64,000 nt of DNA, from the NCBI GenBank assembly GCA_964371245.1, contig CAYJKP010000002.1, positions 178,306 through 242,305 of the forward strand, written 5' to 3'. This document shows positions 9,754-63,641 of the stretch, in pieces; the stretch's first letter is position 1; each line of letters starts with the position of its first letter. The notes below the pieces were generated by a model. The model was given only the letters and a program-made list of their open reading frames with translations, made no database searches and had not been told where the DNA came from. Origin of the DNA: an uncultured Gammaproteobacteria bacterium. Lineage in GTDB: Bacteria > Patescibacteriota > Patescibacteriia > JAHIZJ01. The position numbers and the translations under genes were made by a program.

Positions 9754-11340
9754 ATGGAAAACGAGACACCCCAACAACCGATCGCGAAGCTCGTTCACGC
9801 CTATCAACAGCCAAATCTCGACTTTGCCGCCTTCCCGTCCGAGCCCCGTATCCAGGTCAGTCAGATGGCCAGTCGGATGGCTTTTATTTATGAACGGATC
9901 CGCAACGCGCTTGAATATCAAGAGCTTCATCTGATCCGAAAGAACGCTATTGAACGAACAATGAAACGGCGGCTGATGTCGCGGGTCAAGCCGTCAGAGC
10001 TGGGCCAGGATTTAATATATGAACTTATCCGTGGCCGCTACCTGCCTGACAAACAAGTCCCGGAGCATAAAATCGCCGACGTCACAAATATTCTCAATAA
10101 ATACTTCTACCTTTTTAATCGGATCGGCTTTTATCAAAAAGGCGGGGAAAAACGAAAAACGTACAAATGGCTCATCGGCATCGCAGCCGTCGAGATTGAC
10201 CAAGCACTGATTTCTCCAAACAAGACGCAGGCATTGGCTGAGTTCATGTACTCAACCATCCAAAAGAATATCCAACTCGACCAGAAAATACCGGATTTGG
10301 AAAAGAACATCCAAATTTATCTCGCGGTTCAGCGAGCGCTCCTTCGTTCGGATCAGTCGATCCTCCGCTATCAACTCTTCCTCTATTACAATCAGGGCTG
10401 GTATCAAGCCGACCGAGCCTTCGTTGAAAAACTTGCTCAAAATCTACGCTCCATAAAAGGCGAGATTGAACGTCAGATCAGCCACCCGATCGGCGACAAC
10501 CTCTTTCGCTATCTCAAGAAATACTGCATCTACTTCCACGTCATGAAAGACGTGGTGGAAGAAGATCCGGCCACGGCCTTGCAGCGTTTCTCGGATTTCT
10601 CAAACCTCGAGGTCAGCTTAAAAAAGGCCTGCGCGGAACGGTATAACCAGGCACGCCGGAAGCTTCGGACGGGAGCGGTTCGGGCAATCATCTACATTTT
10701 CATCACCAAAATGATGTTAGCGCTGATCATGGAAGTGCCGTACGACCTCTATCTGAAAGGGGAAACGAATTTGTACCATCTTGGCCTGAATGTCATTTTC
10801 CACCCTCTGTTGTTGTTCCTCGTCGCCCTGACCGTCCGGATCCCAGCCGAGGAAAACACCGCGCAGATCATTGTCGGCGTAAAAAGCATCCTGGCGCGCG
10901 GCGACGCTGGCGAAATACTGATCCAACGAATATTCCGACGACGGAAGATCTTAACATCGGCCTTCAACTTCCTCTACGTCATTCTATTTGTCATTACCTT
11001 TGGAGCGATCATCTTTGTATTAAATCGATTTAATTTCAATGAGCTCAGTATCGCTCTGTTCCTGCTGTTTTTAACGCTGGTCAGTTTCTTTGGCATCAAG
11101 ATGCGCGAAGAGGCGAAAGAGTATATCGTGGTTGGCCGCCGGGAAAGCACGCTCGGATTCGTGATTGACCTCTTTTCAATGCCGATTGTCCGGGCGGGAC
11201 GCTGGATTAGCTTAAAATCGCCGAAAATCAACGTCCTGCTTTTTGTCTTCGATTTCATTATCGAGGCGCCCTACAAGACATTCGTTAATATTTTTGACGA
11301 ATTGACAAAGTTTATTCGCGAGAAAAAAGAAGAGTTATAA
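9754..11340 (+). CDS. hypothetical integral membrane protein (soluble N-terminal ~300 aa, then 5 or more TM helices)
   Basis: Long ORF with a clear hydrophobic helix cluster in the C-terminal half. No family recognised. Confidence 0.5.
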   Translation: MENETPQQPIAKLVHAYQQPNLDFAAFPSEPRIQVSQMASRMAFIYERIRNALEYQELHLIRKNAIERTMKRRLMSRVKPSELGQDLIYELIRGRYLPDKQVPEHKIADVTNILNKYFYLFNRIGFYQKGGEKRKTYKWLIGIAAVEIDQALISPNKTQALAEFMYSTIQKNIQLDQKIPDLEKNIQIYLAVQRALLRSDQSILRYQLFLYYNQGWYQADRAFVEKLAQNLRSIKGEIERQISHPIGDNLFRYLKKYCIYFHVMKDVVEEDPATALQRFSDFSNLEVSLKKACAERYNQARRKLRTGAVRAIIYIFITKMMLALIMEVPYDLYLKGETNLYHLGLNVIFHPLLLFLVALTVRIPAEENTAQIIVGVKSILARGDAGEILIQRIFRRRKILTSAFNFLYVILFVITFGAIIFVLNRFNFNELSIALFLLFLTLVSFFGIKMREEAKEYIVVGRRESTLGFVIDLFSMPIVRAGRWISLKSPKINVLLFVFDFIIEAPYKTFVNIFDELTKFIREKKEEL

Positions 11341-11427: not shown

Positions 11428-14400
11428 CTAGATCTTTCTCGTCCTCGGCAGCGAGTGAATGCCGCCCCTACCCTGCCGTTCATGGAGATCCCAGGCATAG
11501 CTGGCTAGCTGCGCCGGATCGATCGGGTCGCCATCAACGTACAAGAACAGGATATTGGCACCATCAACGTGGTGCAGCTGCGCTTGGGCGTACTTGGATG
11601 GCATGCAGCCCTGGGGACAGACGGCCACACCGCCATGGCGCAGGTCCACGATAGTCAGCGCCGCCTCGCCTTCAGGCGCGCCTTCGAAGTACGGTTTGAC
11701 CGCTGCCATAACAGGCTCGATTCTCGTGTGCGTGTTCCGGCCGATCGCGTGAGCGACGACGCGATCCAGGCGCCAGAATACCCACCACTGCAGGAGGGCC
11801 TTCAGGCTGACCGCCACGCGATTGAACTGATCGCGCTTGTGGCCGTGCCCTTGGGTCCAGGTGAGATACTGGATCCATTCGTGAATCGTTGAGCGCCGAA
11901 CCCTGACATTGTGGTCAGCCAGTATTCTGACCACATTGCCATTGGCATGGGGGTCTCTGACCACGTAGATCTCGCCCGAGAGGTGTCCCTGGACTACATT
12001 GGCCTCTCGCTCAGGATCAATCCAGATCGACTGAAACTCACGGACGACTCGGTCCAAGAAACCGGGTAGCCCCCAGTCGCACAGCCAATCTCGGATCTGA
12101 CCCGGCAAGCGCTGGGCTACCGGACGAACCTTCAACTGCTCTACCGCCCGCGCCATCGCCCACTGATACACTCGATCGACGTCAGCCGGGTTCCGGGCTA
12201 TCGGCAGATAGTAGCACCAGAGCTCGTCCAGCAGATCAGCCAGCATGACTGCGGCGCAGGCCTTAAGTCGCAGGTGTTTTCCCACGCCGTCATAGGCATT
12301 GTCCGATGAAGTAGCAAACAGGTGAACTGCTTGCGCTGGATCCAGCTGGGTCAGAATGATCCCGTGCTGCGTCCGGTACGAACCGAAGCGGCAGGGACCA
12401 GTCGTGGCCGGCATGAACCAGTAGAAGTGTTTGATCTCGGGATATTGCGGCAGAACCTCCCGGACCATGTGCTCGAGAACGCCGGTTACGTACATGTACG
12501 GGACGCATTCTTTTCCGGTCGCGTACCGGCCGCGTCCCAGACGAAGTATCTGGTCATTGGTCGGCGGGGCCGCGATTACCCTGATGCCGATTGACGAATA
12601 GACCGCGGTCAGCAAAGGCTCGAGGTTACCGAACTGACAGAGAACCAGCGCTGACTCAGGGTCATCCGGATTAAACGGCTTGCCCGTATCGTGTTCCTGA
12701 AGCAAGGTGAGATCGGAAACCAGCCCGCGCTTATCTCCGTCCCGATAGTGCCGACGCATGGCGTAGACACTCGACTGAATCCGCGTCGTGAAGCCGCCCA
12801 TGCCCGTATGCCCATCGGTTTCGATGATGCAGTAGGGCACGTCGGCAATGTACCGCAGCCAGTGCTCCAGAAAAGCGTCCGGACCGCAGGAATAGCACGT
12901 GATCATCAGGGGATAAACGCCGGGCCGACGGTGCAGGTCAACCACCGCCCTGAGAATCCTCTGCCCCTCGCCCCAGTACACCAGGTCGAGAAAAGGCGTG
13001 GTCGGATCCACCGGGTAGCAGTCAACCGGAATGGCCACGACGCCGCTGCCCTGAATGATCTCTGGAATCTGTCCGTTGATCGCCGGAGACAGCGTGACAT
13101 AGAGCCGACCCAGCACCACGACGGCTGGCACCCGGTGTACCTCGGCATAATCCAGTGCGCGCTGGCCGATCGCCAGACAACGCTCCTGAAAATCCCGCTG
13201 CACACCAACGGCCAGGTCGAACGCCCGAAGGCTCTCGGCCTTGGTACGGCCCAGCTCTCGTCCCATCGAGACGAAAACCTCTCGCACTTCTTCGCTCGCC
13301 TGCCAATTCAGCCCGAACTTGATTACCGGCCTCAGGATTTTCATCCCGGGATCCGATGAATCATTCGGATTTACTCCGTTGATGGCGGCAGCCACCAGCT
13401 CGGGCGTTCCCTGAACCAGCGGGCACGTACTACCGACGTCGCAGCCGCTCTCCCGAGGCAGCAAAACCACCTTGGGAAAGCAGATCAGATCAACGCCAAG
13501 CTCAACCGCCTGGTCAGCCAAGCCATGGGCAACCTTGACCGGCGCGCACATGTCTTTGCCCAAACTGATCTCCTCACCCCGCTTGAGGGTTTCGGTGGTC
13601 GGTTCAAGCACTTTGACATTCACGCCGAGGTTGGCCCAGAACGAGGTGAGCAGGGGCATGAACCGGACGTTGGCCAGCGTCAGGGGAACCGCCACTGTTG
13701 GCTGCCCCTCCCGATCCACCGGCAAGGCCCGGGTCAGTGCCTCGTGAAGTTTGCGCCGTTCGTCAAACGGCTTCGGTGCGTCGGTCGGCAGTCTGTTTCT
13801 GGCGTTCCCTTCGTGCAGCGGACACATGCCGCCCGACTTAACCGTAACCGTGCGATCGCCGATTGACACCTTTGTCCGGTCAATCCGGCACTTGGCGCCG
13901 CAGTCGCGATTGCCGCAAGCGAAGCTTGAGCGCTCGACGACCTTGGCCGCGAGGAACTGCTCGAGATCAAACGGCTGATTCAGGTCAATCTGTTCCTGAC
14001 GGCATTGCTCGAGCGTCAACAAGGCGATGCCAATAGCACCGGTAGCGCCCGGCCGAGGCGGTACGATTACCTTACGACCAGTTACTGCCGCGATCGCCAT
14101 AGGCAAAGCGATGTTGTTCACCGGCATGCCAAGCGCGAAGATGACCTCTTCCAGTCCCAGTTGTCCGACCAGCCGGTTTAACCAGTTGTGGGCAATGAAG
14201 TAGAAGCGGCCGGCAGCGATGTCTTGGACGGTAAAGCCCTCACCCAACGCCCGGTCGGCAATGTCTCCGGAGTAGACAACGCAGGTTTGGCCCATGTCGA
14301 TCGGCTCTCGCGATTCGAGCGCCCATCGGCCAAACTCCTGAATCGTCGCCTTCATCCGCCTCGCGTCATACTCAACTTCGAAACCTGTTCCCGCCGAGCA

Positions 14401-15774
14401 AGCCCGGTTCATGTCTGAAGCGACTGGCATTCCTTTCCGGATATTGACCACCTTGGCATCCTGGCCGCCCAACTCACAGATAGTTACGGATCGGCCATGC
14501 TCTGGATCGTAGTAGCACGCACCCGCGGCATGCGCGGTGATTTCTGTTTCAACCAGCATCTGATTCCGCAAACCGCCAAAGCAAGCCTCAGCCACGTCGT
14601 AGACCGCGCGCCGACCCGAACCGGTAAAACCGAGACTGACAATCTGAACTCGGTCTCCGACCGCGGCCAGCATTTGCCGAACGATCAGTTGCGCAGCGGC
14701 GACCGGATTGCTGTTGGTTGGAACATAGTCGTCCCAGACTCGGCGTCCGGTAGCTACGTCGACCAATGCCGCCTTGGTTCCAGTTGAGCCGGAATCAATG
14801 CCGAGCGCGGCTCGTCCGCTCCAATGTGCCAGATCAAAATCCGGCTCGGTCAGCTTCTGGACCAGATGAGCTGCTGTGGTGAGCGGCTTGAACGTACGGA
14901 TGCTCCGAGACTTCGGACGAACGACAGTTGCTGAATCAGCGGTGTAGCGAGATACCTGGCCAGCCATGACCAAATCAGCCGCGATCAATCCCGCACCCCA
15001 GGCTTCGAAATAGTCAGACTCGGGATGGATTTCAATCGTCGGCTGGCCGATCATCGACTGGAGAGAGTCCATAACCGGCTGATTCTTGGTCACGCCGCCG
15101 ATTACGATCACCCGCCCGTCAATCGAGTTCTTCCTAAACAGGGCGTAAACAGATGCGGCAATGCCTCGAAAATAGCTCTTCAGCAAGACCGCAATGTCTT
15201 CGCCCGCATTGGCTAGGTGAGTGATCTCAGACTGGGCGAACGCCGCACAGCGCGGAACTAACTCAACCACTCGGTCAGTTGCCTGCGCCGCAGTAATCGC
15301 CTCGGGTACGCTCATGTCGGCTCGGGCGCATTGCTTCTCAACCGCTTCACCCGTGCCAGCCGAACACTTTTCAGCCAGCGAATTAGAGTATTCACCACCT
15401 TGGTTGCGCGTGAGCACGCTGTAGCCCCCGGCGCTGATCCGGATCAGGTTGATCGGCTCGTGGCCGACACCCTCAACCGGCGGGAAGAAATGTTCGCAGG
15501 CGCGATTCAGAGCCGCATCTCTGGGAATGTCACTTTGAACTTGTCCCCCGAGAATGCTGCCCAAGCTGCCAGTGGCCACCACCTTGCGAATCCGTGAATG
15601 GTCGAGTCGGGCCCAGATCTGGCCGACCGCCCTTCCCGGATTGCGCTGATGGGGGCACAGCACTTCGTCAGCCTTCACCCAACTTCCATCAGATCGTTCC
15701 AGGACGATCGCCGCCACGGTAGTCCGCCCGACTTTCAGGCCGACCACCTGGTCTCTCTGAGCCATACTGATCAT
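11428..15774 (-). CDS. acyl-CoA dehydratase activase-related protein: two BadF/BadG/BcrA/BcrD (ASKHA) ATPase domains fused to a dehydratase-like DUF2229-type C-terminal region
   Basis: Two activase-type ATPase N-termini (LKVGRTTVAAIVLE and LGIDSGSTGTKAALVD), each with a GGV.KN...GA.G.AL tail. Cys-rich C-terminal half (CGNRDCGAKC...GGMCPLHEG). Start at internal ATG with SD AGAAGGAGG. 1449 aa. Confidence 0.7.
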   Translation of the reverse strand: MISMAQRDQVVGLKVGRTTVAAIVLERSDGSWVKADEVLCPHQRNPGRAVGQIWARLDHSRIRKVVATGSLGSILGGQVQSDIPRDAALNRACEHFFPPVEGVGHEPINLIRISAGGYSVLTRNQGGEYSNSLAEKCSAGTGEAVEKQCARADMSVPEAITAAQATDRVVELVPRCAAFAQSEITHLANAGEDIAVLLKSYFRGIAASVYALFRKNSIDGRVIVIGGVTKNQPVMDSLQSMIGQPTIEIHPESDYFEAWGAGLIAADLVMAGQVSRYTADSATVVRPKSRSIRTFKPLTTAAHLVQKLTEPDFDLAHWSGRAALGIDSGSTGTKAALVDVATGRRVWDDYVPTNSNPVAAAQLIVRQMLAAVGDRVQIVSLGFTGSGRRAVYDVAEACFGGLRNQMLVETEITAHAAGACYYDPEHGRSVTICELGGQDAKVVNIRKGMPVASDMNRACSAGTGFEVEYDARRMKATIQEFGRWALESREPIDMGQTCVVYSGDIADRALGEGFTVQDIAAGRFYFIAHNWLNRLVGQLGLEEVIFALGMPVNNIALPMAIAAVTGRKVIVPPRPGATGAIGIALLTLEQCRQEQIDLNQPFDLEQFLAAKVVERSSFACGNRDCGAKCRIDRTKVSIGDRTVTVKSGGMCPLHEGNARNRLPTDAPKPFDERRKLHEALTRALPVDREGQPTVAVPLTLANVRFMPLLTSFWANLGVNVKVLEPTTETLKRGEEISLGKDMCAPVKVAHGLADQAVELGVDLICFPKVVLLPRESGCDVGSTCPLVQGTPELVAAAINGVNPNDSSDPGMKILRPVIKFGLNWQASEEVREVFVSMGRELGRTKAESLRAFDLAVGVQRDFQERCLAIGQRALDYAEVHRVPAVVVLGRLYVTLSPAINGQIPEIIQGSGVVAIPVDCYPVDPTTPFLDLVYWGEGQRILRAVVDLHRRPGVYPLMITCYSCGPDAFLEHWLRYIADVPYCIIETDGHTGMGGFTTRIQSSVYAMRRHYRDGDKRGLVSDLTLLQEHDTGKPFNPDDPESALVLCQFGNLEPLLTAVYSSIGIRVIAAPPTNDQILRLGRGRYATGKECVPYMYVTGVLEHMVREVLPQYPEIKHFYWFMPATTGPCRFGSYRTQHGIILTQLDPAQAVHLFATSSDNAYDGVGKHLRLKACAAVMLADLLDELWCYYLPIARNPADVDRVYQWAMARAVEQLKVRPVAQRLPGQIRDWLCDWGLPGFLDRVVREFQSIWIDPEREANVVQGHLSGEIYVVRDPHANGNVVRILADHNVRVRRSTIHEWIQYLTWTQGHGHKRDQFNRVAVSLKALLQWWVFWRLDRVVAHAIGRNTHTRIEPVMAAVKPYFEGAPEGEAALTIVDLRHGGVAVCPQGCMPSKYAQAQLHHVDGANILFLYVDGDPIDPAQLASYAWDLHERQGRGGIHSLPRTRKI

Positions 15775-15981
15775 TCGACTGCCTCCTTCTATTCGTGTCC
15801 ACTGATTGCCATACCTACGTAAAAACACGGGTTTTCAAAGACCGTGTTTATCTTTATTTTCAAGCCAATTTGGCTATATACCTTGTACCAGTTTCAGGCC
15901 GGCTTGTCAAAAAGAAAAAACGGCTCAAACCAGGGGGTTTGAGCCAAACTGACTGTGGTGCCACCGAGTGCACCGAAAGGG

Positions 15982-17109
15982 CTAGACTTCCTTGAACATG
16001 TACTTCCCGAAGGCCCGGTCGATCCGCTGCCGCCAGTCGTCGGGGCAGAAGAACTGGGTGACTGCCGCCGCGCTTGAAAGCAGCGAGTTCCCGTCCTGAG
16101 GGGTGAAGGCGAAACCCACGATCTCGTTACCATTGACCTCGAGCGTGTTGACCGGAATCACGGTTTGATCGAGGAACCGACCGTAGAACCCGTCGTCACG
16201 CGCCTCGGAAAACACCTGACCGGTGTTGTCCCACCAGGTCGTCGCCATGAGCGGCTGTTCCCGGATCGCCGCGATGAGCAGCTCGAGCGTCGGCGGATCA
16301 GCTACCTCGAGATTGAAGTGGCAGACATGCATGTACTGAGAGGGGATCTGAAGGGCAGACGAGAACAGGTTGAGATCCAGTCCGCACAGTTGGAGCAGCC
16401 GCCAGGCGTCGTAGGCGTGGTGCGTCCCGAACCGCCGGATCACGACATCTCCGTCCTTCAAAACCTCCTTGTGCTTGTCCACCTTCGGCGCCGAGATCAT
16501 TTCCGCCTGGCTGATGTCAGTCGCCCGCCGGATCATGACGAACCGACCCTTGATGAGCACCAGCCCCATCTTGCGGAGAAGGTTCAGCAGCGCCAGAATG
16601 TTGTGGGTGTTGCACGAAACCACCTGGCGCCACTTACTGTCCGCGACCTCGTCGTTGTTGACGTCGAGAGCGAACGGGACACCGAAACCATCCTCAGATC
16701 CCTGGGCAATGAACCCGCGCGTGGTCGCCTCGTGCTGAGGATACCACGGCTCCACCTTCACCGACTTCTTCTCGCCGGTCTTCTTGTCCTTGACCAGCAT
16801 CTCGCCGGTCTTGTGGCCGAGTCCGGCCGGAGTGCAGTCGATCACCACGTCCGCCCAGGCGAGCGCCTCCTCCCGGCTCATCTGCGGCTCCAGGCCGAGC
16901 TTGGCGAACTCGCCGAATTGATCCTGGTCAGTGACGAAGATCGCATCGCGCTGGATCAGACGTCGAACCGATGCCCTAGTCTTCAGTTCCGGCGTCCGCT
17001 TGTGGAACGCCACTTCGCGGATGCCGAGTTCCTCCCTCCTCTTCGTAAGCAGCCCGATCAACGGCTTGCCAATGGTCCCCGTGCCGACAACTAAGACCTT
17101 CCCCATCAT
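15982..17109 (-). CDS. archaeal-type (type II) glyceraldehyde-3-phosphate dehydrogenase family oxidoreductase
   Basis: GTGTIGK dinucleotide-binding start, DVVIDCTPAGLG and catalytic VVSCNTH motifs align with type II GAPDH. Contains a ~50-aa insertion. SD GAGGAGG before ATGATG. Confidence 0.55.
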   Translation of the reverse strand: MMGKVLVVGTGTIGKPLIGLLTKRREELGIREVAFHKRTPELKTRASVRRLIQRDAIFVTDQDQFGEFAKLGLEPQMSREEALAWADVVIDCTPAGLGHKTGEMLVKDKKTGEKKSVKVEPWYPQHEATTRGFIAQGSEDGFGVPFALDVNNDEVADSKWRQVVSCNTHNILALLNLLRKMGLVLIKGRFVMIRRATDISQAEMISAPKVDKHKEVLKDGDVVIRRFGTHHAYDAWRLLQLCGLDLNLFSSALQIPSQYMHVCHFNLEVADPPTLELLIAAIREQPLMATTWWDNTGQVFSEARDDGFYGRFLDQTVIPVNTLEVNGNEIVGFAFTPQDGNSLLSSAAAVTQFFCPDDWRQRIDRAFGKYMFKEV

Positions 17110-17245
17110 TGACCTCCTCGATGGCCGCATTCACCCGGGTAATCGCATCGAACACAACTCGTTCCTCGGAACGAAAGAAGGCCTGAGTTACCCTCCCCTG
17201 CCTTCTTACCAATCAAATAGTATTACGTATGATGAGGTATGACAA

Positions 17246-36392: not shown

Positions 36393-36420
36393 TTGACACA
36401 ATATTATATTATGATAGTAT
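36393..36420 (+). promoter_or_regulatory. sigma70-like promoter (TTGACA-16-TAGTAT) at the left end of the low-GC island
   Basis: Near-consensus hexamers within a 150-nt AT-rich spacer. The ORF tool start (TTG) coincides with the -35 box, so the real start is placed at the downstream ATG. Confidence 0.5.
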
Positions 36421-36452
36421 ACATATATATTAATTCATCTAATTTTAACAAC

Positions 36453-37622
36453 ATGACAAACAATCCTCTATTATTCAAACTCCCTGCCATTAGAATTCGG
36501 CAGAGAGAGGAAACAAAACAAGCAATATATACCGCAGTTGTAAAAGCAAAAGATTTCATTACAAGAGAAACTGAAAGGTTTGTAATCGATTATTATAAGA
36601 GAGAGGATGGGATCGAAGATGGCTATCAAAGACCATTGACACCCATCTCAGTAACGAAAATTAAAGATTATATTCTAAAAGAGGTAAAAAATCCTTTATT
36701 GCCTACGAGTATTCTCGTGAATGCGCGAGATAGACTAAAATTTGAAGCAATTAACGACCCATACGGCTACCTGACCATAGATCAACCATTATTTATTATT
36801 GATGGACAACATAGATTCGAAGCCTGGAAACAACTTATGCATGATGAAAAATTAAGAGAAGTTTTAGGTGATTATGAGTTTCCAGTTGTTATCTTGTCGG
36901 GCTTTGAGCAAATAAAAGAAATAGAGCAATTCTATGTAATAAATTCAAGGCAAAAAAGAATAAAAACAGATTTAGCTCAAAGAAATTTCTTAAAGCTTGC
37001 AGGTAATAAAAATACGGAGTCAATAATCCCGGAAAGATCTAAATGGACATTATACGCAACTAAAATAGTGGATATTCTGAATGAGCAAATAAATGATTCG
37101 ATCTGGCACGATAGAATCATATTACCAAGCGACGGGTCTGATTTAAGGAAAAGGAAGATTATTTCACAGGCGTCTTTTGTTTCATCTTTGAAGCCAATGT
37201 TCATTGGTAGAGATGCAATTTTCGCCATCAATGACGATGAACTCCCGAAATTAATAAAAAAGTGGGCAGATCTTGTTAATAGCTATTGGGATACAGTCTA
37301 TAAAATATATCCGGAAGCGATAGATAATCTTCATGATTACTCCTTAATGAAAACGGTTGGGGTCTTCTCGCTACACTTATTATTGGTAAAGATTATAAAT
37401 CAAAAAGGGCTAAAAGACACTATTCTTGATCCGAAAGTACAAACAGACATATTAAAAGAATCAAAAGAAAAAATTGAAGAAGCTAAAAAGCATACGTTTA
37501 AGTTGGATTTCTGGAGATCAAAAGTGTCAGATATTAAAAAGGACAGGGGTGAATATGCCGGATCATATTCATCATCTGTTGGACATAATAAAATTGTAGC
37601 CAGAATATTCCTGGGCTATTAA
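36453..37622 (+). CDS. DGQHR-motif protein (DndB/ParB-like nuclease superfamily), stand-alone
   Basis: Exact FIIDGQHRF motif, the diagnostic core of DndB/DGQHR domains. 389 aa. ~32% GC versus ~55% flanks. No dndACDE or dpdA partners in the window. Confidence 0.7.
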   Translation: MTNNPLLFKLPAIRIRQREETKQAIYTAVVKAKDFITRETERFVIDYYKREDGIEDGYQRPLTPISVTKIKDYILKEVKNPLLPTSILVNARDRLKFEAINDPYGYLTIDQPLFIIDGQHRFEAWKQLMHDEKLREVLGDYEFPVVILSGFEQIKEIEQFYVINSRQKRIKTDLAQRNFLKLAGNKNTESIIPERSKWTLYATKIVDILNEQINDSIWHDRIILPSDGSDLRKRKIISQASFVSSLKPMFIGRDAIFAINDDELPKLIKKWADLVNSYWDTVYKIYPEAIDNLHDYSLMKTVGVFSLHLLLVKIINQKGLKDTILDPKVQTDILKESKEKIEEAKKHTFKLDFWRSKVSDIKKDRGEYAGSYSSSVGHNKIVARIFLGY

Positions 37623-37630
37623 CAAGCCAT

Positions 37631-38272
37631 ATGTTCACCGAAACTAATACATGGTTTTATACGTTGAGTACTATTTCCCAGACTTGCGCTGCTATACTTG
37701 CGCTCGGTGCAACATTCGTTGTATTTAAGCTTGATAAAGTAAAAATAGCAATTGATAATTATAGAGGTAGAGTAGTTCGATTATTACAGCTCTGGCATAG
37801 AGGTGAAAAAGCGCCAGATAAGTTTTTTGATGAGCCTGATGAAAAAATAATAGAACAGTACATAACAAGCGTAATTGATAGCGATGAAGATGTATTTGAC
37901 AGAAACGGTGTTATAGAATTATATGAGCTTTTTGAAGGAGTTCGTTTGAATTATGCTGTATCAAAAGATGCATTTATAATGAGCAACGGAATAAAACTAG
38001 ATCATGAAGAAAGAAAAAGGTGGTGTAACAGAATGGCTCACCTCATGAAAAAAAACGTTATACTAAATAATAGAATATATAATTATTTACGGTTTTCTAT
38101 AATATCTCTAGCGATGAGTATAATAATAAGCGTCGGATTGTTAATAGCGAAACCCTTAAATTTACCTGTTGATAAAAATACTTTAATTGTAATTGTGGCT
38201 TTTGCAATTTTATCAATTGGGTACAGCGCTTATGCTGTTTGGAAAATCGCCAGATCAAAACCTATTCAATAA
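37631..38272 (+). CDS. membrane protein co-transcribed with the DGQHR protein (1 N-terminal and 2 C-terminal TM helices, ~110-aa acidic soluble core)
   Basis: Starts 8 nt after the DGQHR stop. Same low GC. Hydrophobic segments WFYTLSTISQTCAAILALGATFVVF and FSIISLAMSIIISVGLLIA/LIVIVAFAILSIGYSAYAV. Confidence 0.55.
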   Translation: MFTETNTWFYTLSTISQTCAAILALGATFVVFKLDKVKIAIDNYRGRVVRLLQLWHRGEKAPDKFFDEPDEKIIEQYITSVIDSDEDVFDRNGVIELYELFEGVRLNYAVSKDAFIMSNGIKLDHEERKRWCNRMAHLMKKNVILNNRIYNYLRFSIISLAMSIIISVGLLIAKPLNLPVDKNTLIVIVAFAILSIGYSAYAVWKIARSKPIQ

Positions 38273-59440: not shown

Positions 59441-59727
59441 CTCTGTCACCCGCCGCCGCGCAACGCATTGTTGCTACCGGCGGTTTTTCTTACCTAGCGG
59501 AAATTGTTAATAAATGTCTTTATAAAAATTATAGCGATATTTATACACAGCCTGTTGATAAATTTCCTTGACACCCATACGGCACGGGACTAAGGTGGAA
59601 ACAACGATATCTGTGAGGCGATGAAGCGTAGTACTTAATTGGTCGCTTAGCCATCCTAGTTAAATAGAGGAGGGCTGGGACTACGCGGAGCCAGTAGCGA
59701 AACCGATCACGATTTCACTGACTTATC

Positions 59728-59755: not shown

Positions 59756-59929
59756 ATATTGGGCAAAAAACTCAAGCATCCCACTCTTATCCGAATACAT
59801 CCCTCGGGTAAGTCAGGGTGCTGGAGGGATTACCCTGCCAAACGCACCTTGAGATTTTAACCACGGATAATTCGCAGAGTGTCTCTAAACCCGCAGCCAC
59901 GGAATCGTCCCGATCAGAAGGAGGGAGCC

Positions 59930-60682
59930 ATGCACCGACTCAGTGTCCTCTGTTGCATCGCCCTGGTAGCAGTGTTCAATGCCAGCTGCGCCCAGGCGAC
60001 CGAACCGTCAACCACAACCCGTGGCCCGGTTTGGGCCTACGGCGCCGAAGTCCAAGGCGAGGCCTGGTTTGAGGAACGCGAGGGCGTTTCCTACTACCAG
60101 GGAAGGTATCAGTACTGGCCGCGCGCCCACAGGGAGGAGGCGCCGGCTGCTCTGACGGAACTCGACCCCCTGACCGCCCACGCGTGCGAAGTGGCTGGCA
60201 CCGTCCTCGATGAGGCATCGGCGGCCGCCGGTAGCGCCGTGACGCAGTCCGACTGGGAACGTCTCTACACGCAGGTGCTGGAGGCGCACCGCGATGTCGT
60301 CATTTCCTACACACCGAACGGCCGGACCATCGCAATCGAGTTCGCCAATCTCCCGGTCAAGTACGTCATCAGCTGCCCGGTCAATCCCGCGCGGTCCGGC
60401 CGGATTGCGTCGGATCCCGACAGCGTCCGGCAAACCCAGGTCGATCGCTTCTGGAAGTTCTACAACAACGGGTCCTGGGTCTTCTGGGGCTCCGACTACT
60501 TCATGGTCGTGCCGCCGATCTGGCAGGCAAAAACCATCGCCGCCATCGACAGCGTGACCGCTCTCAAGAACAGCGGGCTCCAGGGCGAAGCGCTCACCCG
60601 CGCTATCGTCGCCATCGACATCAAGAACACCGCGCTCGAAGAGGACAACTTCGTCAGGGACCTGATCAGCGAGGGGAGGTAA
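59930..60682 (+). CDS. hypothetical secreted protein / putative lipoprotein (high GC)
   Basis: SD GGAGGGAG. Signal peptide MHRLSVLCCIALVAVFNASC with a lipobox-like FNASC. 250 aa. Confidence 0.5.
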   Translation: MHRLSVLCCIALVAVFNASCAQATEPSTTTRGPVWAYGAEVQGEAWFEEREGVSYYQGRYQYWPRAHREEAPAALTELDPLTAHACEVAGTVLDEASAAAGSAVTQSDWERLYTQVLEAHRDVVISYTPNGRTIAIEFANLPVKYVISCPVNPARSGRIASDPDSVRQTQVDRFWKFYNNGSWVFWGSDYFMVVPPIWQAKTIAAIDSVTALKNSGLQGEALTRAIVAIDIKNTALEEDNFVRDLISEGR

Positions 60683-60686
60683 GGCC

Positions 60687-62165
60687 ATGCGCATCCTGAA
60701 GCTCTGTTTGTTCAACATCTTCGGGCTCGCCTGTCTCTTCACCTGCGCTCTCGCATCACAGCCCGAACCGCCCGGCCAATGCAAAACGCCGGGCGCCTAT
60801 TTCGCCCGTCTCGAAGAGCCCTGGCAGTTCATCAACGGCGCGCAGCCTGACGCGGAGAACGCGCTCAATCACCAGGGATACACCTTCGTCTGGCACGGGA
60901 ACCCCGACACCACATTCTACCCTGCCTTGCCGGACCCGACTCTGACGGAGTTCGTGTCTGACATCGGGGCAGACGCTGGGGCATTCTTCCTAAGTGGAGA
61001 CTCTGACAACCAGTGCACTGCTGTCGAGGTCTACCCACACACCACTCGCGGACGTCGGCTCGCTCTCGCTGCTGGCCAGAACTATGCCAACCACGGCTTC
61101 AGCGGCGAGGTATACCTCTACGAAGACGCCTGGCAGAGCGGCTGGGCAGTCGCCTTGTCTTGGTCTGGAGTATCATCGCGCTGTAACTTCAACGACGCGA
61201 TCGTAGACATCGAGACCTGCATCAGCACCGCCTCGGGAACGTGGACCGGAGCCAGAGTGGAATTCGTCAATGACGACTATCTCTCTGACTCAGAGAGCTT
61301 CACGAACACGGACGCGATCTGGGGCGGGCTCGACGGACAGGACGGCTGGAAACGCCGAACGGCCAGTTGGGGCTTTGCCCACGCTTCTTCCAAGTGCCAC
61401 ATGCGCGAACCGCAGACCGACGGGGGCAAGACGACGCTGGCCCCCTGCGTGAAGTGGTTCAACTTCGACCACGGCGACCAGATTCCCGACCAGGGCCTTG
61501 ATCTCCAGGTCCTCTTTGACACCGAGATCACGACGGTCGGAGGTGCGCTGAGCGCCTTCGAGGTCACCCGACCCGGAGGCGATCCAGTCACCTTCACCGT
61601 GACAAACGCCCAGCTGGCGAATGACACGACTCTGACCGTCCACGTTGCGCCTGTCACCGGTTCCTTCGGCGCCTCCTACCTCTCCGCCCTCTCGAACAAT
61701 ATCGTCAGCAAGTGCAACAGCAATGCCCATCTCGACGGTAGCCAAGAGGGCGGTCCTGACGACATGACCTGGCGGCTGAAGCACGGCCAGGATCCGGCGG
61801 CGGAGATTTGCACCTTCGCCGTCGACGAGAACGGCCTCGCCCGGTGGGAGGTCTCGTCCGAGTATCGAACCGAGAAGTACCTTGTCCAGGGCCTCTCCGG
61901 CGCTGACTGGGTAACGCTCGCTACGATTCCGGCCGGCCAGTCCCACTATGAACAGTCCGTCGGCGCCGGCTACCCGGCCTATCGCCTGATCGAAGTCGAA
62001 ACCGGCGGCCACGAGATCATGCAGGAGACTGCCGTCGCTCATCCGATCCCGACTGCAGCACCGGACACGCTTCTGACCGATGACCAACTGCGAGCACTGC
62101 TCGACGAGAAAGAGCATAATCGCGGTGGCGGAACACCGTCCTGCGGGCGCGGCGGCGACACCTGA
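60687..62165 (+). CDS. secreted protein, N-terminal portion of a probable T9SS cargo (signal peptide present). Ends at in-frame TGA
   Basis: Signal peptide MRILKLCLFNIFGLACLFTCALA. Same reading frame as the downstream ORF. See finding. Confidence 0.5.
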   Translation: MRILKLCLFNIFGLACLFTCALASQPEPPGQCKTPGAYFARLEEPWQFINGAQPDAENALNHQGYTFVWHGNPDTTFYPALPDPTLTEFVSDIGADAGAFFLSGDSDNQCTAVEVYPHTTRGRRLALAAGQNYANHGFSGEVYLYEDAWQSGWAVALSWSGVSSRCNFNDAIVDIETCISTASGTWTGARVEFVNDDYLSDSESFTNTDAIWGGLDGQDGWKRRTASWGFAHASSKCHMREPQTDGGKTTLAPCVKWFNFDHGDQIPDQGLDLQVLFDTEITTVGGALSAFEVTRPGGDPVTFTVTNAQLANDTTLTVHVAPVTGSFGASYLSALSNNIVSKCNSNAHLDGSQEGGPDDMTWRLKHGQDPAAEICTFAVDENGLARWEVSSEYRTEKYLVQGLSGADWVTLATIPAGQSHYEQSVGAGYPAYRLIEVETGGHEIMQETAVAHPIPTAAPDTLLTDDQLRALLDEKEHNRGGGTPSCGRGGDT

Positions 62166-62195
62166 AGCTTCGTCATCATCGCAGCCCCACAGTTT

Positions 62196-63641
62196 GTGGG
62201 GGACAGCCAGTACATGTCCAACTACTGGACAGCGAAGGGCTACACCGTCACCATCGTCTCGACCTCTAGCTTCGGCGGCGACATCCTGAACGGCGTCAAG
62301 AACTACGTCCGAAACAACTCCGCCCAGTACTTCCTGCTCGTCGGCGACTACTCCGACCCAGCCTGGGGCGGTTCGCTCTGGAACGCCAACGGCTGGCCGA
62401 CCATCTACCAGGGGTATCTACAGGACGGTTACCCGTCCGGCGGTAACCCCACTCACAACCTGATCCCGACCCAGGTCGTACCGGATCCGTTGCCGCGGAA
62501 CCAGAATATGGCGTACTTCGCGCCCTACTGGTTCTTGAGCGACATGATCCTCTACGGCGATACGGACGACAACGGACTGCCCGACAAGACGGTCACCCGC
62601 CTGCCCTACACCACTGCCAGCCAGTACCTGAATCACATCTGGAACATGGAGTACTACAACGACGCCGGTTATCCGGCGGACTCGTACCAGGTCCAGTTCT
62701 TCGTGGGCGATGTGGATCACTACGAGGACGGCGAGGGCGACTTGGCGGTCGCCATGGCCGACAGTATCACCTCGATCCTGCCGGGCTACCAGTACGTCAA
62801 CCGCATGCTGGAATCGACCTATTTCGACGCCTACACCAGGGCGCTGATGGCGGCCCAGCGCTGGAACTCGGACCTCGAGCTCGTCATCTTCGCGAGTGCC
62901 ATGGGGAATCGGTACAAGCCGGGGAATTTCTTCTCGGTCAGCGCCGGCTTCTCCATGAGCATGATCTACTCCGGAACCTGGTGCCCCTGGGTTATCGGCA
63001 GTTCCTGCGACACCGGCGATGAGTTCTTCGTGATGCATCCAAGCTACCAGGAAACGGTCCTCAACCGGTTCCTGACCGCCTCGAACAAGGGTGCGATCGG
63101 CTGGGCTGGACCGACCGCCGGGACCTGGCAGGACGCGAACGTCGTTATCGCTGCCACGATCGTGCACCGCATCTACGAAGATCCATCTCGCCCGGTGGCT
63201 GAGAGTATCCGCTTGGCGCTGTGTGATATCCTGATCGCGTACGATCCTGAGACGCATCCGGACATCGTGAACACCGCCTTGTCGTATGCTGCCTTCTGCG
63301 ATCCGCTCACGCCGTTCCTGCACGCCAATCACGTCGTCGCCGTGGACGAGCAGAGATCCGACATCCAGCTGACTCTCGCCCAGAACCGTCCGAATCCCTT
63401 CGGCGGACAGACGGCCATTCGGTTCACGCTGCCTCAGGCCGGGCCGGTCAGCCTGCGCGTGTATGACGTGGCCGGGCGAGTCGTCCGTACGCTCATCAAC
63501 GGTCTGAGCCAGCCCGGTGCCTACCAGGCCGTCTGGAACGGAATGAACGACGACGGTCGGCTGGTCAGCCAGGGCATTTACTTCGCCCGTCTCGCGGCCC
63601 AGGGTCGCGAACTCGAGCGCAAGTTGGTGCTGATGCGCTGA
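62196..63641 (+). CDS. C-terminal portion of probable T9SS cargo protein (protease-like catalytic region + type-A T9SS C-terminal sorting domain)
   Basis: Last ~85 aa (NRPNPFGGQTAIRFTLPQAGPVSLRVYDVAGRVVRTL...SQGIYFARLAAQGRELERKLVLMR) match the T9SS CTD consensus. No signal peptide of its own. Listed start is an alternative codon (GTG). Confidence 0.55.
   Translation: MGDSQYMSNYWTAKGYTVTIVSTSSFGGDILNGVKNYVRNNSAQYFLLVGDYSDPAWGGSLWNANGWPTIYQGYLQDGYPSGGNPTHNLIPTQVVPDPLPRNQNMAYFAPYWFLSDMILYGDTDDNGLPDKTVTRLPYTTASQYLNHIWNMEYYNDAGYPADSYQVQFFVGDVDHYEDGEGDLAVAMADSITSILPGYQYVNRMLESTYFDAYTRALMAAQRWNSDLELVIFASAMGNRYKPGNFFSVSAGFSMSMIYSGTWCPWVIGSSCDTGDEFFVMHPSYQETVLNRFLTASNKGAIGWAGPTAGTWQDANVVIAATIVHRIYEDPSRPVAESIRLALCDILIAYDPETHPDIVNTALSYAAFCDPLTPFLHANHVVAVDEQRSDIQLTLAQNRPNPFGGQTAIRFTLPQAGPVSLRVYDVAGRVVRTLINGLSQPGAYQAVWNGMNDDGRLVSQGIYFARLAAQGRELERKLVLMR

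Follow-up and report, generated by a model that had tools for sequence, protein, structure and literature searches.

A predicted, divergent PlsA/Ger-family protein encoded beside a class-II GAPDH-like dehydrogenase in a Patescibacterium

Giant fused proteins that combine activase and catalytic parts in one chain have been characterised since 2021–2022 as PlsA and Ger (PMC13159169, PMC8788747, PMC12838417). PlsA/PlsR is the anaerobic plasmalogen synthase of Jackson et al. 2021 (summarised in PMC9702350 and PMC8788747), with a two-gene form in C. perfringens and a single-gene form, EF1327, in E. faecalis (PMC12838417, PMC9702350). Sahonero-Canavesi et al. 2022, who obtained 1-alkyl glycerol monoethers, introduced the name glycerol ester reductase (Ger) for the enzyme, also called 'modified PlsA'; the validated members are T. 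maritima Tmari_0479 and D. alkenivorans SHJ90043, and Ger by itself is enough for ether lipids in E. coli (PMC13159169). Here, a 64-kb stretch of contig CAYJKP010000002.1 (the window) was analysed for two genes on its reverse strand, a long fused gene (gene B, 11428–15774) and, directly upstream, a gene resembling class-II glyceraldehyde-3-phosphate dehydrogenase (GAPDH; gene A, 15982–17106). A first-pass annotation had described the pair as a horizontally acquired, ATP-dependent reductive module of unknown substrate. The locus is probably better read as two independent, separately terminated neighbours in one Patescibacteria lineage, gene B belonging as a single polypeptide to the PlsA/Ger branch of the benzoyl-CoA reductase/2-hydroxyacyl-CoA dehydratase radical enzymes and gene A encoding a class-II-type dehydrogenase.

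Gene B and the PlsA/Ger family

The published Ger architecture comprises two PF01869 domains, PF09989 and further small domains, with the second reduction/dehydration module shown as small 'H/D' Pfam matches; the order 'BBD' (two BcrAD_BadFG domains, then DUF2229) is common to every alkyl-ether producer (PMC13159169). Forms with one activase are linked to plasmalogens, those with two to alkyl ethers (PMC13274423). The open reading frame (ORF) of gene B (11428–15828, reverse strand) has 1466 aa from a GTG. Public gene calls on identical contigs start the protein at the ATG at 15774 (1448 aa), a start that is shared by homologues and preceded 7 nt upstream by a GGAGG Shine–Dalgarno sequence (15786–15782). 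The identical pair of gene A and gene B proteins was also found on contigs from metagenomes or metagenome-assembled genomes (MAGs), the longest measuring 1.17 Mb. The label 'Patescibacteria group bacterium' is attached to close homologues of gene B, and the public annotation is 'acyl-CoA dehydratase activase'.

Gene B has the BBD domain order. Pfam placed BcrAD_BadFG in two stretches and detected DUF2229 (E 1.3e-38), NCBIfam returned the 'acyl-CoA dehydratase activase' domain, and each ASKHA half matched activator structures separately. T. maritima MSB8 protein P0387 (AAD35567/AGL49404), which from its accession series is presumably locus Tmari_0479, served as the reference. It aligned with gene B at 29 % identity over 1328 columns (residues 113–1398; pairwise E 8e-146), collinear over 92 % of the length and with all 14 conserved Cys matched, which far surpasses the homologue criterion of PMC13159169 (E<=1e-50, at least 30 % query coverage). 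A homologue from a Desulfatibacillum sp. MAG matched at 28 % identity over 96 % of the query (E 1.9e-121). Gene B thus has the BBD order, the homology and the conserved [4Fe-4S] Cys expected of PlsA/Ger, and on that evidence it is a new, divergent member of the known family in a Patescibacterium. The first-pass statement that giant fused forms are functionally uncharacterised, with no known substrate, is thus overtaken, as gene B is a full-length homologue of an architecture that has already been characterised. By analogy with PlsA and Ger, its substrate and product would be those of an ester-to-ether lipid conversion.

The chain is ordered Act1-Act2-Cys linker-Red1-Red2. Act1 (aa ~8–300, 14875–15753) is a divergent ASKHA/BcrAD_BadFG domain, and the N-terminal 321 aa alone matched the activators HadI, HgdC and MbdQ (E 4e-11 to 1e-10). 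Residues 322–610 matched the same activators at E 2e-22 to 4e-14 and include Act2 (aa ~322–592, 13999–14811), a canonical HgdC/HadI-type ATPase domain with the motifs GIDSGSTGTK and ELGGQDAK. C459 and C498 of Act2 align with C127 and C166 of HgdC (1HUX), which we take to be the two ligands that each monomer provides for a bridging [4Fe-4S] cluster. The equivalent pair in Act1 is C137/C176, aligned with the same Cys positions in MbdQ. Because the HgdC ligands have counterparts in both Act1 and Act2, where the first pass had suggested looking for them, its description of gene B as a fused mimic of the homodimeric activator is correct. It had also called both ATPase domains complete; that there are two is confirmed by Pfam and by the separate activator matches, but Act1 has degenerate nucleotide motifs and lacks GGQD across the entire family in the homologue alignment. 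The phosphate-1 motif of Act1 (aa 8–22, window 15708–15752) is GLKVG(R/K)TT in the Patescibacteria clade (GLKVGRTT in gene B) and GxDxG in all other homologues; the metal-binding phosphate-1 Asp has therefore been exchanged for Lys in this clade. Act1 may be a structural pseudo-ATPase that merely supplies two cluster ligands.

The C-terminal 838 aa agree with the earlier description of a Cys-containing region of ~800 aa, being Cys-rich and dehydratase-like in fold. An AlphaFold2 (AF2) model of this region had a predicted local distance difference test (pLDDT) score of 90 overall and placed the linker in beta-strands. In a fold search, the model resembled the catalytic subunits of 2-hydroxyacyl-CoA dehydratase (HAD), benzoyl-CoA reductase (BCR) and double-cubane cluster protein (DCCP), with HadB/C, DCCP and BzdN/O as best structural neighbours; gene B thus contains the catalytic-subunit fold of the BCR/HAD radical enzymes (HadB/C-BzdN/O). 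The Cys-rich beta-hairpin linker (aa 612–655, 13810–13941) carries the invariant C620, C625, C629 and C651 (C-x4-C-x3-C-x21-C) and is presumed to be a metal or Fe-S site. Red1 (aa ~693–1010, 12745–13698) is the DUF2229 module, with invariant C743, C784 and C963, and Red2 (aa ~1041–1433, 11476–12654) appears to be a diverged repeat of the Red1 fold, with invariant C1090, C1128 and C1390 and a weak DUF2229 repeat match at aa ~1052–1106 (E 9e-5). Fourteen Cys of gene B do not vary among 16 homologues, and for ten of these, all in the C-terminal region (four in the linker, three each in Red1 and Red2), the same holds among 49 homologues; the four linker Cys are conserved in the T. maritima Ger protein as well. 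HAD-type catalytic clusters are each held by three Cys and have one iron site open, a ligation that the three invariant Cys in each of Red1 and Red2 match. The domain annotation proposed in the first pass thus recovered the paired ASKHA domains and DUF2229 and did not recover HGD-D, for which Pfam gave no match in the C-terminal half even at E<=10; neither Pfam nor NCBIfam detected any HGD-D or benzoyl-CoA reductase catalytic-subunit family in gene B by sequence. Domains, fold and ligands together support the earlier view of an ATP-driven, low-potential-electron reductase of the BCR/HAD type with activase and catalytic parts fused.

In the proposed mechanism, Act1 and Act2 would form an intramolecular pseudo-dimer with a bridging [4Fe-4S] cluster on C137/C176 and C459/C498. 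Reduced ferredoxin or flavodoxin would supply an electron, which ATP hydrolysis, probably mostly at Act2, would drive to very low potential; the electron would then enter the two three-Cys [4Fe-4S] sites in Red1 and Red2. At these sites the sn-1 acyl ester carbonyl of a glycerophospholipid would be reduced in two one-electron steps; protonation and dehydration would yield a vinyl ether (PlsA-type), and further reduction a saturated alkyl ether (Ger-type). If active, gene B extends ether-lipid formation by PlsA/Ger chemistry to the Patescibacteria, with consequences for the 'lipid divide' debate, for the environmental sources of ether-lipid biomarkers and for the question of how bacterial episymbionts with minimal genomes make or remodel their membranes.

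Gene A and its family

The ORF at 15982–17130 (reverse strand) encodes 382 aa, and public gene calls start at the ATG at 17106 (374 aa). The product is predicted to be a class-II GAPDH-like NAD(P)-dependent dehydrogenase, and the motifs GTGTIG, DCTP and SCNTH are present. Its sole NCBIfam matches were type-II GAPDH models, no Pfam family was found at E<=0.01, and sequence matches in the PDB were limited to four archaeal GAPDHs at about 20 % identity. In a Foldseek search with the AF2 model (pLDDT 87), the best six matches were to 2CZC, 1CF2, 1B7G and 2YYY (E ~1e-19 to 1e-20, template modelling score 0.71–0.81), followed by class-I GAPDH and erythrose-4-phosphate dehydrogenase (E ~1e-13 to 1e-14). 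Aspartate-semialdehyde dehydrogenase was considered and rejected, as none occurred among the NCBIfam matches, the PDB sequence matches or the 50 Foldseek matches listed. Motifs, sequence matches and fold thus bear out the first-pass identification of a type-II GAPDH-like gene upstream of gene B on the same strand. The single 50-aa insertion that it reported was replaced by two lineage-specific insertions relative to the gene's own family, of ~17 aa (aa ~104–120) and ~9 aa (aa ~214–222).

Cys165 (in SCNTH), His260 (in YMH), Arg193/194 and His229/230 align with C140, H219, R167-R168 and H193-H194 of M. fervidus GAPDH (numbering counted from the alignment). The Cys and His, the Arg pair and the His pair are invariant in 40 family members, and from archaeal GAPDH structures we take their roles to be catalytic and anion-binding. 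The motif HKRTP at the cofactor site resembles the archaeal (S/T)KT(R/K)P. Of 8,000 candidates scored, 5,517 clusters at 90 % identity reached E<=0.001; the family is highly conserved, with only 65 clusters at 50 % identity reaching E<=1e-30. The few homologues named to organism come from Acidobacteria, Tectomicrobia, [Eubacterium] cellulosolvens and Patescibacteria, and the NCBI name for family members is 'hypothetical protein'. With more than 5,500 clusters at 90 % identity, and with the few named matches being bacterial and from several phyla, an archaeal-type GAPDH in a bacterium is not the rarity that the first pass had supposed. A literature search on archaeal-type GAPDH in the candidate phyla radiation (CPR) found nothing, and no class-I GAPDH was seen within the window. 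On sequence and model, gene A is assigned to a widespread, highly conserved bacterial subfamily of class-II-type NAD(P)-dependent thioacyl-enzyme aldehyde dehydrogenases; its most probable identity is a phosphorylating GAPDH, or a near variant whose substrate is a phosphorylated aldehyde. A conserved, unnamed family of this kind in several bacterial phyla would be a cheap biochemical target.

A conserved operon partner for the gene A family was sought and rejected, since neighbours differ between lineages. Neighbours recognised by eye included a metallo-beta-lactamase-fold hydrolase, tilS-hpt-ftsH, ccmABC and HMG-CoA reductase, while in one locus Pfam confirmed urocanase, UbiA and an HD-domain protein. 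Several loci of 29–32 % GC (L114, L127, L138, L141, L142, L164 and others) share hutH, hutU (urocanase), an HD-domain phosphohydrolase and a UbiA-type prenyltransferase as neighbours, and two of ~42 % GC (L133, L135) have an HMG-CoA reductase-like gene near the GAPDH-like gene, by a look at the sequence only; some of these metagenome loci could be archaeal. In two further loci with distant homologues of gene A (L007, L009), the GAPDH-like gene lies between a divergent hprK-rapZ-PTS (phosphotransferase system) cluster and a convergent fabF-acpP-fabG-fabD-(plsX or fabH)-rpmF operon, a position that is conserved in two lineages and outside both operons.

Relationship of the two genes and alternative explanations

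The two genes are separated by a strong intrinsic terminator after gene A (15946–15921, reverse strand; 11-bp stem with 6 GC pairs, then TTTTTTCTTT), in agreement with the first-pass annotation. The separate promoter that it had placed between the genes was not recovered, as the scan found no sigma-70 promoter there. A promoter-like site lies upstream of gene A (17217–17245, reverse strand; TTGTCA-17-TACTAT, 9/12 matches), as a consensus match only, and the number of such sites found equalled the number expected by chance. The leader RNA of gene B shows no unusual degree of structure (z −1.46) and gave no Rfam match. A second small hairpin, ACACGG...CCGUGU with a U run, is present in this leader between the terminator and the ribosome-binding site (15820–15848, reverse strand); it could be an attenuator, although its fold is not significant and it has no Rfam match.

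Co-occurrence was examined in 80 PlsA/Ger-like loci from GTDB species genomes (10-kb flanks, 1.3 Mb) and in 80 GAPDH-like metagenome loci (0.66 Mb). None of the 80 PlsA/Ger-like loci contained a GAPDH-like gene and none of the 80 GAPDH-like loci contained a PlsA/Ger-like gene. Among Patescibacteria, adjacency of genes A and B is confined to one conserved syntenic block, found in the window and in the related loci L005 and L097. The same block (HSP20 ... gene A ... 528-aa membrane protein ... HD_4) occurs without gene B in L094, gene A occurs without gene B in another context in L093 and L095, and gene B (61 % identity) occurs without gene A in L096. In the co-occurrence check proposed in the first pass, the genes were neighbours in L005 and L097 and never in the 160 unrelated loci. 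With a terminator between the genes, no co-occurrence in either set and each gene found alone in Patescibacteria, the proposal of a module that includes the dehydrogenase fails; the region is not a new 'module' because the GAPDH-like gene is an independent neighbour. As first described, a newly found, horizontally acquired reductive module of unknown substrate, the locus is for the most part accounted for by what was already known.

Several observations were made at these related loci. The 528-aa protein, encoded at window positions 9754–11340 on the forward strand, has no Pfam match, appears membrane-protein-like by eye, is 72–74 % identical in relatives and is a constant convergent neighbour at the site with or without the fused gene. 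In L097 (1556–2635, GCA_018814765.1), the GAPDH-like gene is 42 % identical to gene A, compared with 65 % for the fused gene and 73 % for the 528-aa membrane gene, and its motifs are those of mainstream bacterial members (FSFGRD, YARGIND) and not of the Patescibacteria sub-clade (FSEARD, FALDVN). These differences point to replacement in situ or to a strong shift in rate. In L096, a heliorhodopsin gene (13126–13926) lies ~800 bp downstream of the fused gene.

The GC contents of the two genes were 0.596 and 0.611, with immediate flanks of 0.48 and 0.41. The first-pass contrast of ~62 % with ~45 % was overstated. Genes in the window have a GC content of 0.535 +/- 0.067; genes A and B exceed this by about one standard deviation, and a dozen others reach or surpass 0.60. 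In six related loci, the orthologues (42–67 % identical for gene A, 61–65 % for gene B) are 2–14 GC points above their surroundings and track the GC content of each genome. Recent horizontal transfer was tested as an explanation by per-gene GC and third-position GC in the window and the six loci and was rejected, the pair not being outliers. An excess of this size, about one standard deviation, that is also seen in diverged relatives is no evidence of recent transfer, and horizontal acquisition can no longer be argued from composition. The pattern fits gene-specific composition or ancient history rather than recent acquisition. Its patchy distribution does indicate that gene B has been gained or lost within the Patescibacteria lineage.

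Some observations weigh against reading the locus as a PlsA/Ger-type enzyme beside a GAPDH. Sequence cannot separate PlsA from Ger (PMC13274423). Gene B is only 29 % identical to the protein taken as a validated Ger and has lost the phosphate-1 Asp of Act1 along with its clade. In a rough neighbour-joining tree the Patescibacteria clade grouped with a Myxococcota/Actinomycetota-type branch that lacks validated members and not with the Thermotoga or Desulfatibacillum branch, and its nearest relatives outside the Patescibacteria are ~31–35 % identical. No lipid-synthesis genes were seen within the 64-kb window, and Patescibacteria are generally thought to be without de novo lipid synthesis, which makes the in vivo substrate of gene B uncertain. 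Gene A scored far below the NCBIfam equivalog cut-offs (90.5 vs 185 bits for NF003251, 65.7 vs 232.9 for TIGR01546), and no recurrent glycolytic-looking neighbour family was found in ~80 clustered loci of its family, which were read from the sequences with few Pfam-scanned.

The divergence of gene B leaves some room for a BCR/HAD-type ATP-dependent reductase or dehydratase that acts on a non-lipid substrate, such as a 2-hydroxyacyl-CoA, an aromatic CoA ester or a small molecule as for DCCP, and resembles PlsA/Ger in architecture only. The closest structural neighbours (HadB/C, DCCP and BzdN/O), the clade's branch without a validated member, the distance from Ger and the public name 'acyl-CoA dehydratase activase' are all compatible with this. 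We nevertheless consider it unlikely, as no HGD-D or benzoyl-CoA reductase catalytic family is recognisable by sequence, the T. maritima Ger alignment is collinear over nearly the whole length and loses none of the conserved Cys, the vicinity is free of CoA-ligase, CoA-transferase and fermentation genes, and DUF2229 with two activase domains is the form validated as Ger (PMC13159169). For gene A, a real possibility, though short of probable, is that it is not a GAPDH and that a class-II-fold dehydrogenase with another physiological substrate defines an uncharacterised bacterial family. The NCBIfam scores at under half of the cut-offs, the lack of a Pfam match at E<=0.01, the 'hypothetical protein' names, the distinct invariant motifs AQGSExFG and FTPQDGN and the fact that a gap-pgk-tpi context was not seen all point that way, as does the presence of the family in lineages such as [Eubacterium] cellulosolvens, which are expected to have a class-I GapA. 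Set against this are the conservation of all catalytic and presumed anion-binding residues located by alignment with M. fervidus GAPDH, the archaeal-like HKRTP motif and the archaeal GAPDHs as nearest folds.

Joint action of the two genes, in which the GAPDH-like enzyme would for example serve the ether-forming enzyme by making an aldehyde from an acyl-phosphate or thioester, or by providing reducing equivalents, is very improbable. It would account for the same-strand adjacency in the window and two related MAGs (L005, L097) and for the higher GC of both genes than their flanks, and in two distant bacteria a GAPDH-like gene adjoins a convergent fabF-acpP-fabG-fabD-plsX cluster. However, the intergenic terminator is strong, co-occurrence was 0/80 and 0/80 in unrelated loci, in close relatives each gene is found on its own, in one case at the identical syntenic site, GAPDH-like genes have heterogeneous neighbours, and Ger alone suffices in E. 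coli (PMC13159169). The module reading is largely refuted. Within the preferred reading of two independent neighbours, a fuller account can be offered tentatively, in which a stand-alone PlsA/Ger-type enzyme of a CPR bacterium, with a degenerate first ATPase domain, would turn scavenged diacyl phospholipids into ether lipids and, separately, the large, unnamed gene A family has a substrate that is perhaps not glyceraldehyde 3-phosphate. Ultra-small Patescibacteria (CPR) are generally thought to rely on host-derived lipids. If this account is true, the membrane of the Patescibacterium would be chemically distinct from that of its host.

Surroundings of the locus and comparison with known systems

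The surrounding genes of the window include ruvB, queA, queH, gyrA and many orphan genes for low-complexity secreted proteins; taken with the labels on close homologues of gene B, they suggest that the source is a CPR bacterium. Two ORFs at 36393–38272 (forward strand), with a GC content of 0.33 vs 0.53 for the window, are the real compositional outlier; a DndB domain (PF14072, E 2.7e-15) was detected in the first, and the segment probably represents a defence or DNA-modification islet of recent acquisition. An Rfam c-di-GMP-II-GAG riboswitch match (59606–59716, forward strand; 40.5 vs a gathering score of 40 bits) lies upstream of two orphan ORFs and a Peptidase_C25/FlgD_ig protein (59879–63641), all with a GC content of 0.62–0.64.

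Compared with the archaeal GAPDHs of M. fervidus (1CF2), P. horikoshii (2CZC), S. solfataricus (1B7G) and M. jannaschii (2YYY), gene A has the same predicted fold. It keeps the GxGxxG cofactor site of archaeal class-II GAPDH as well as the two catalytic residues, Cys and His, and the RR and HH pairs, whereas its family differs in having its own invariant motifs, two lineage-specific insertions and bacterial named members.

Gene B resembles Ger in being a single chain of ~1400–1450 aa that contains two BcrAD_BadFG domains and DUF2229, followed by a putative second reductase/dehydratase-like module. It differs in its separate branch, in the Lys at the position of the phosphate-1 Asp of Act1 and in its Patescibacterium host. 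With PlsA/PlsR, going by the published descriptions, it shares the BCR/HAD-derived order Act1-Act2-Red1-Red2 and the [4Fe-4S] Cys, and the proposed chemistry is the same as far as the vinyl ether. In contrast to HadBC/HadI, HgdAB/HgdC, BzdNOPQ, MbdONQP and DCCP/DCCP-R, gene B fuses all four parts in one chain, and it differs from the 2-hydroxyacyl-CoA dehydratases, benzoyl-CoA reductases and DCCP in having an extra four-Cys linker and a neighbourhood without CoA-metabolism genes.

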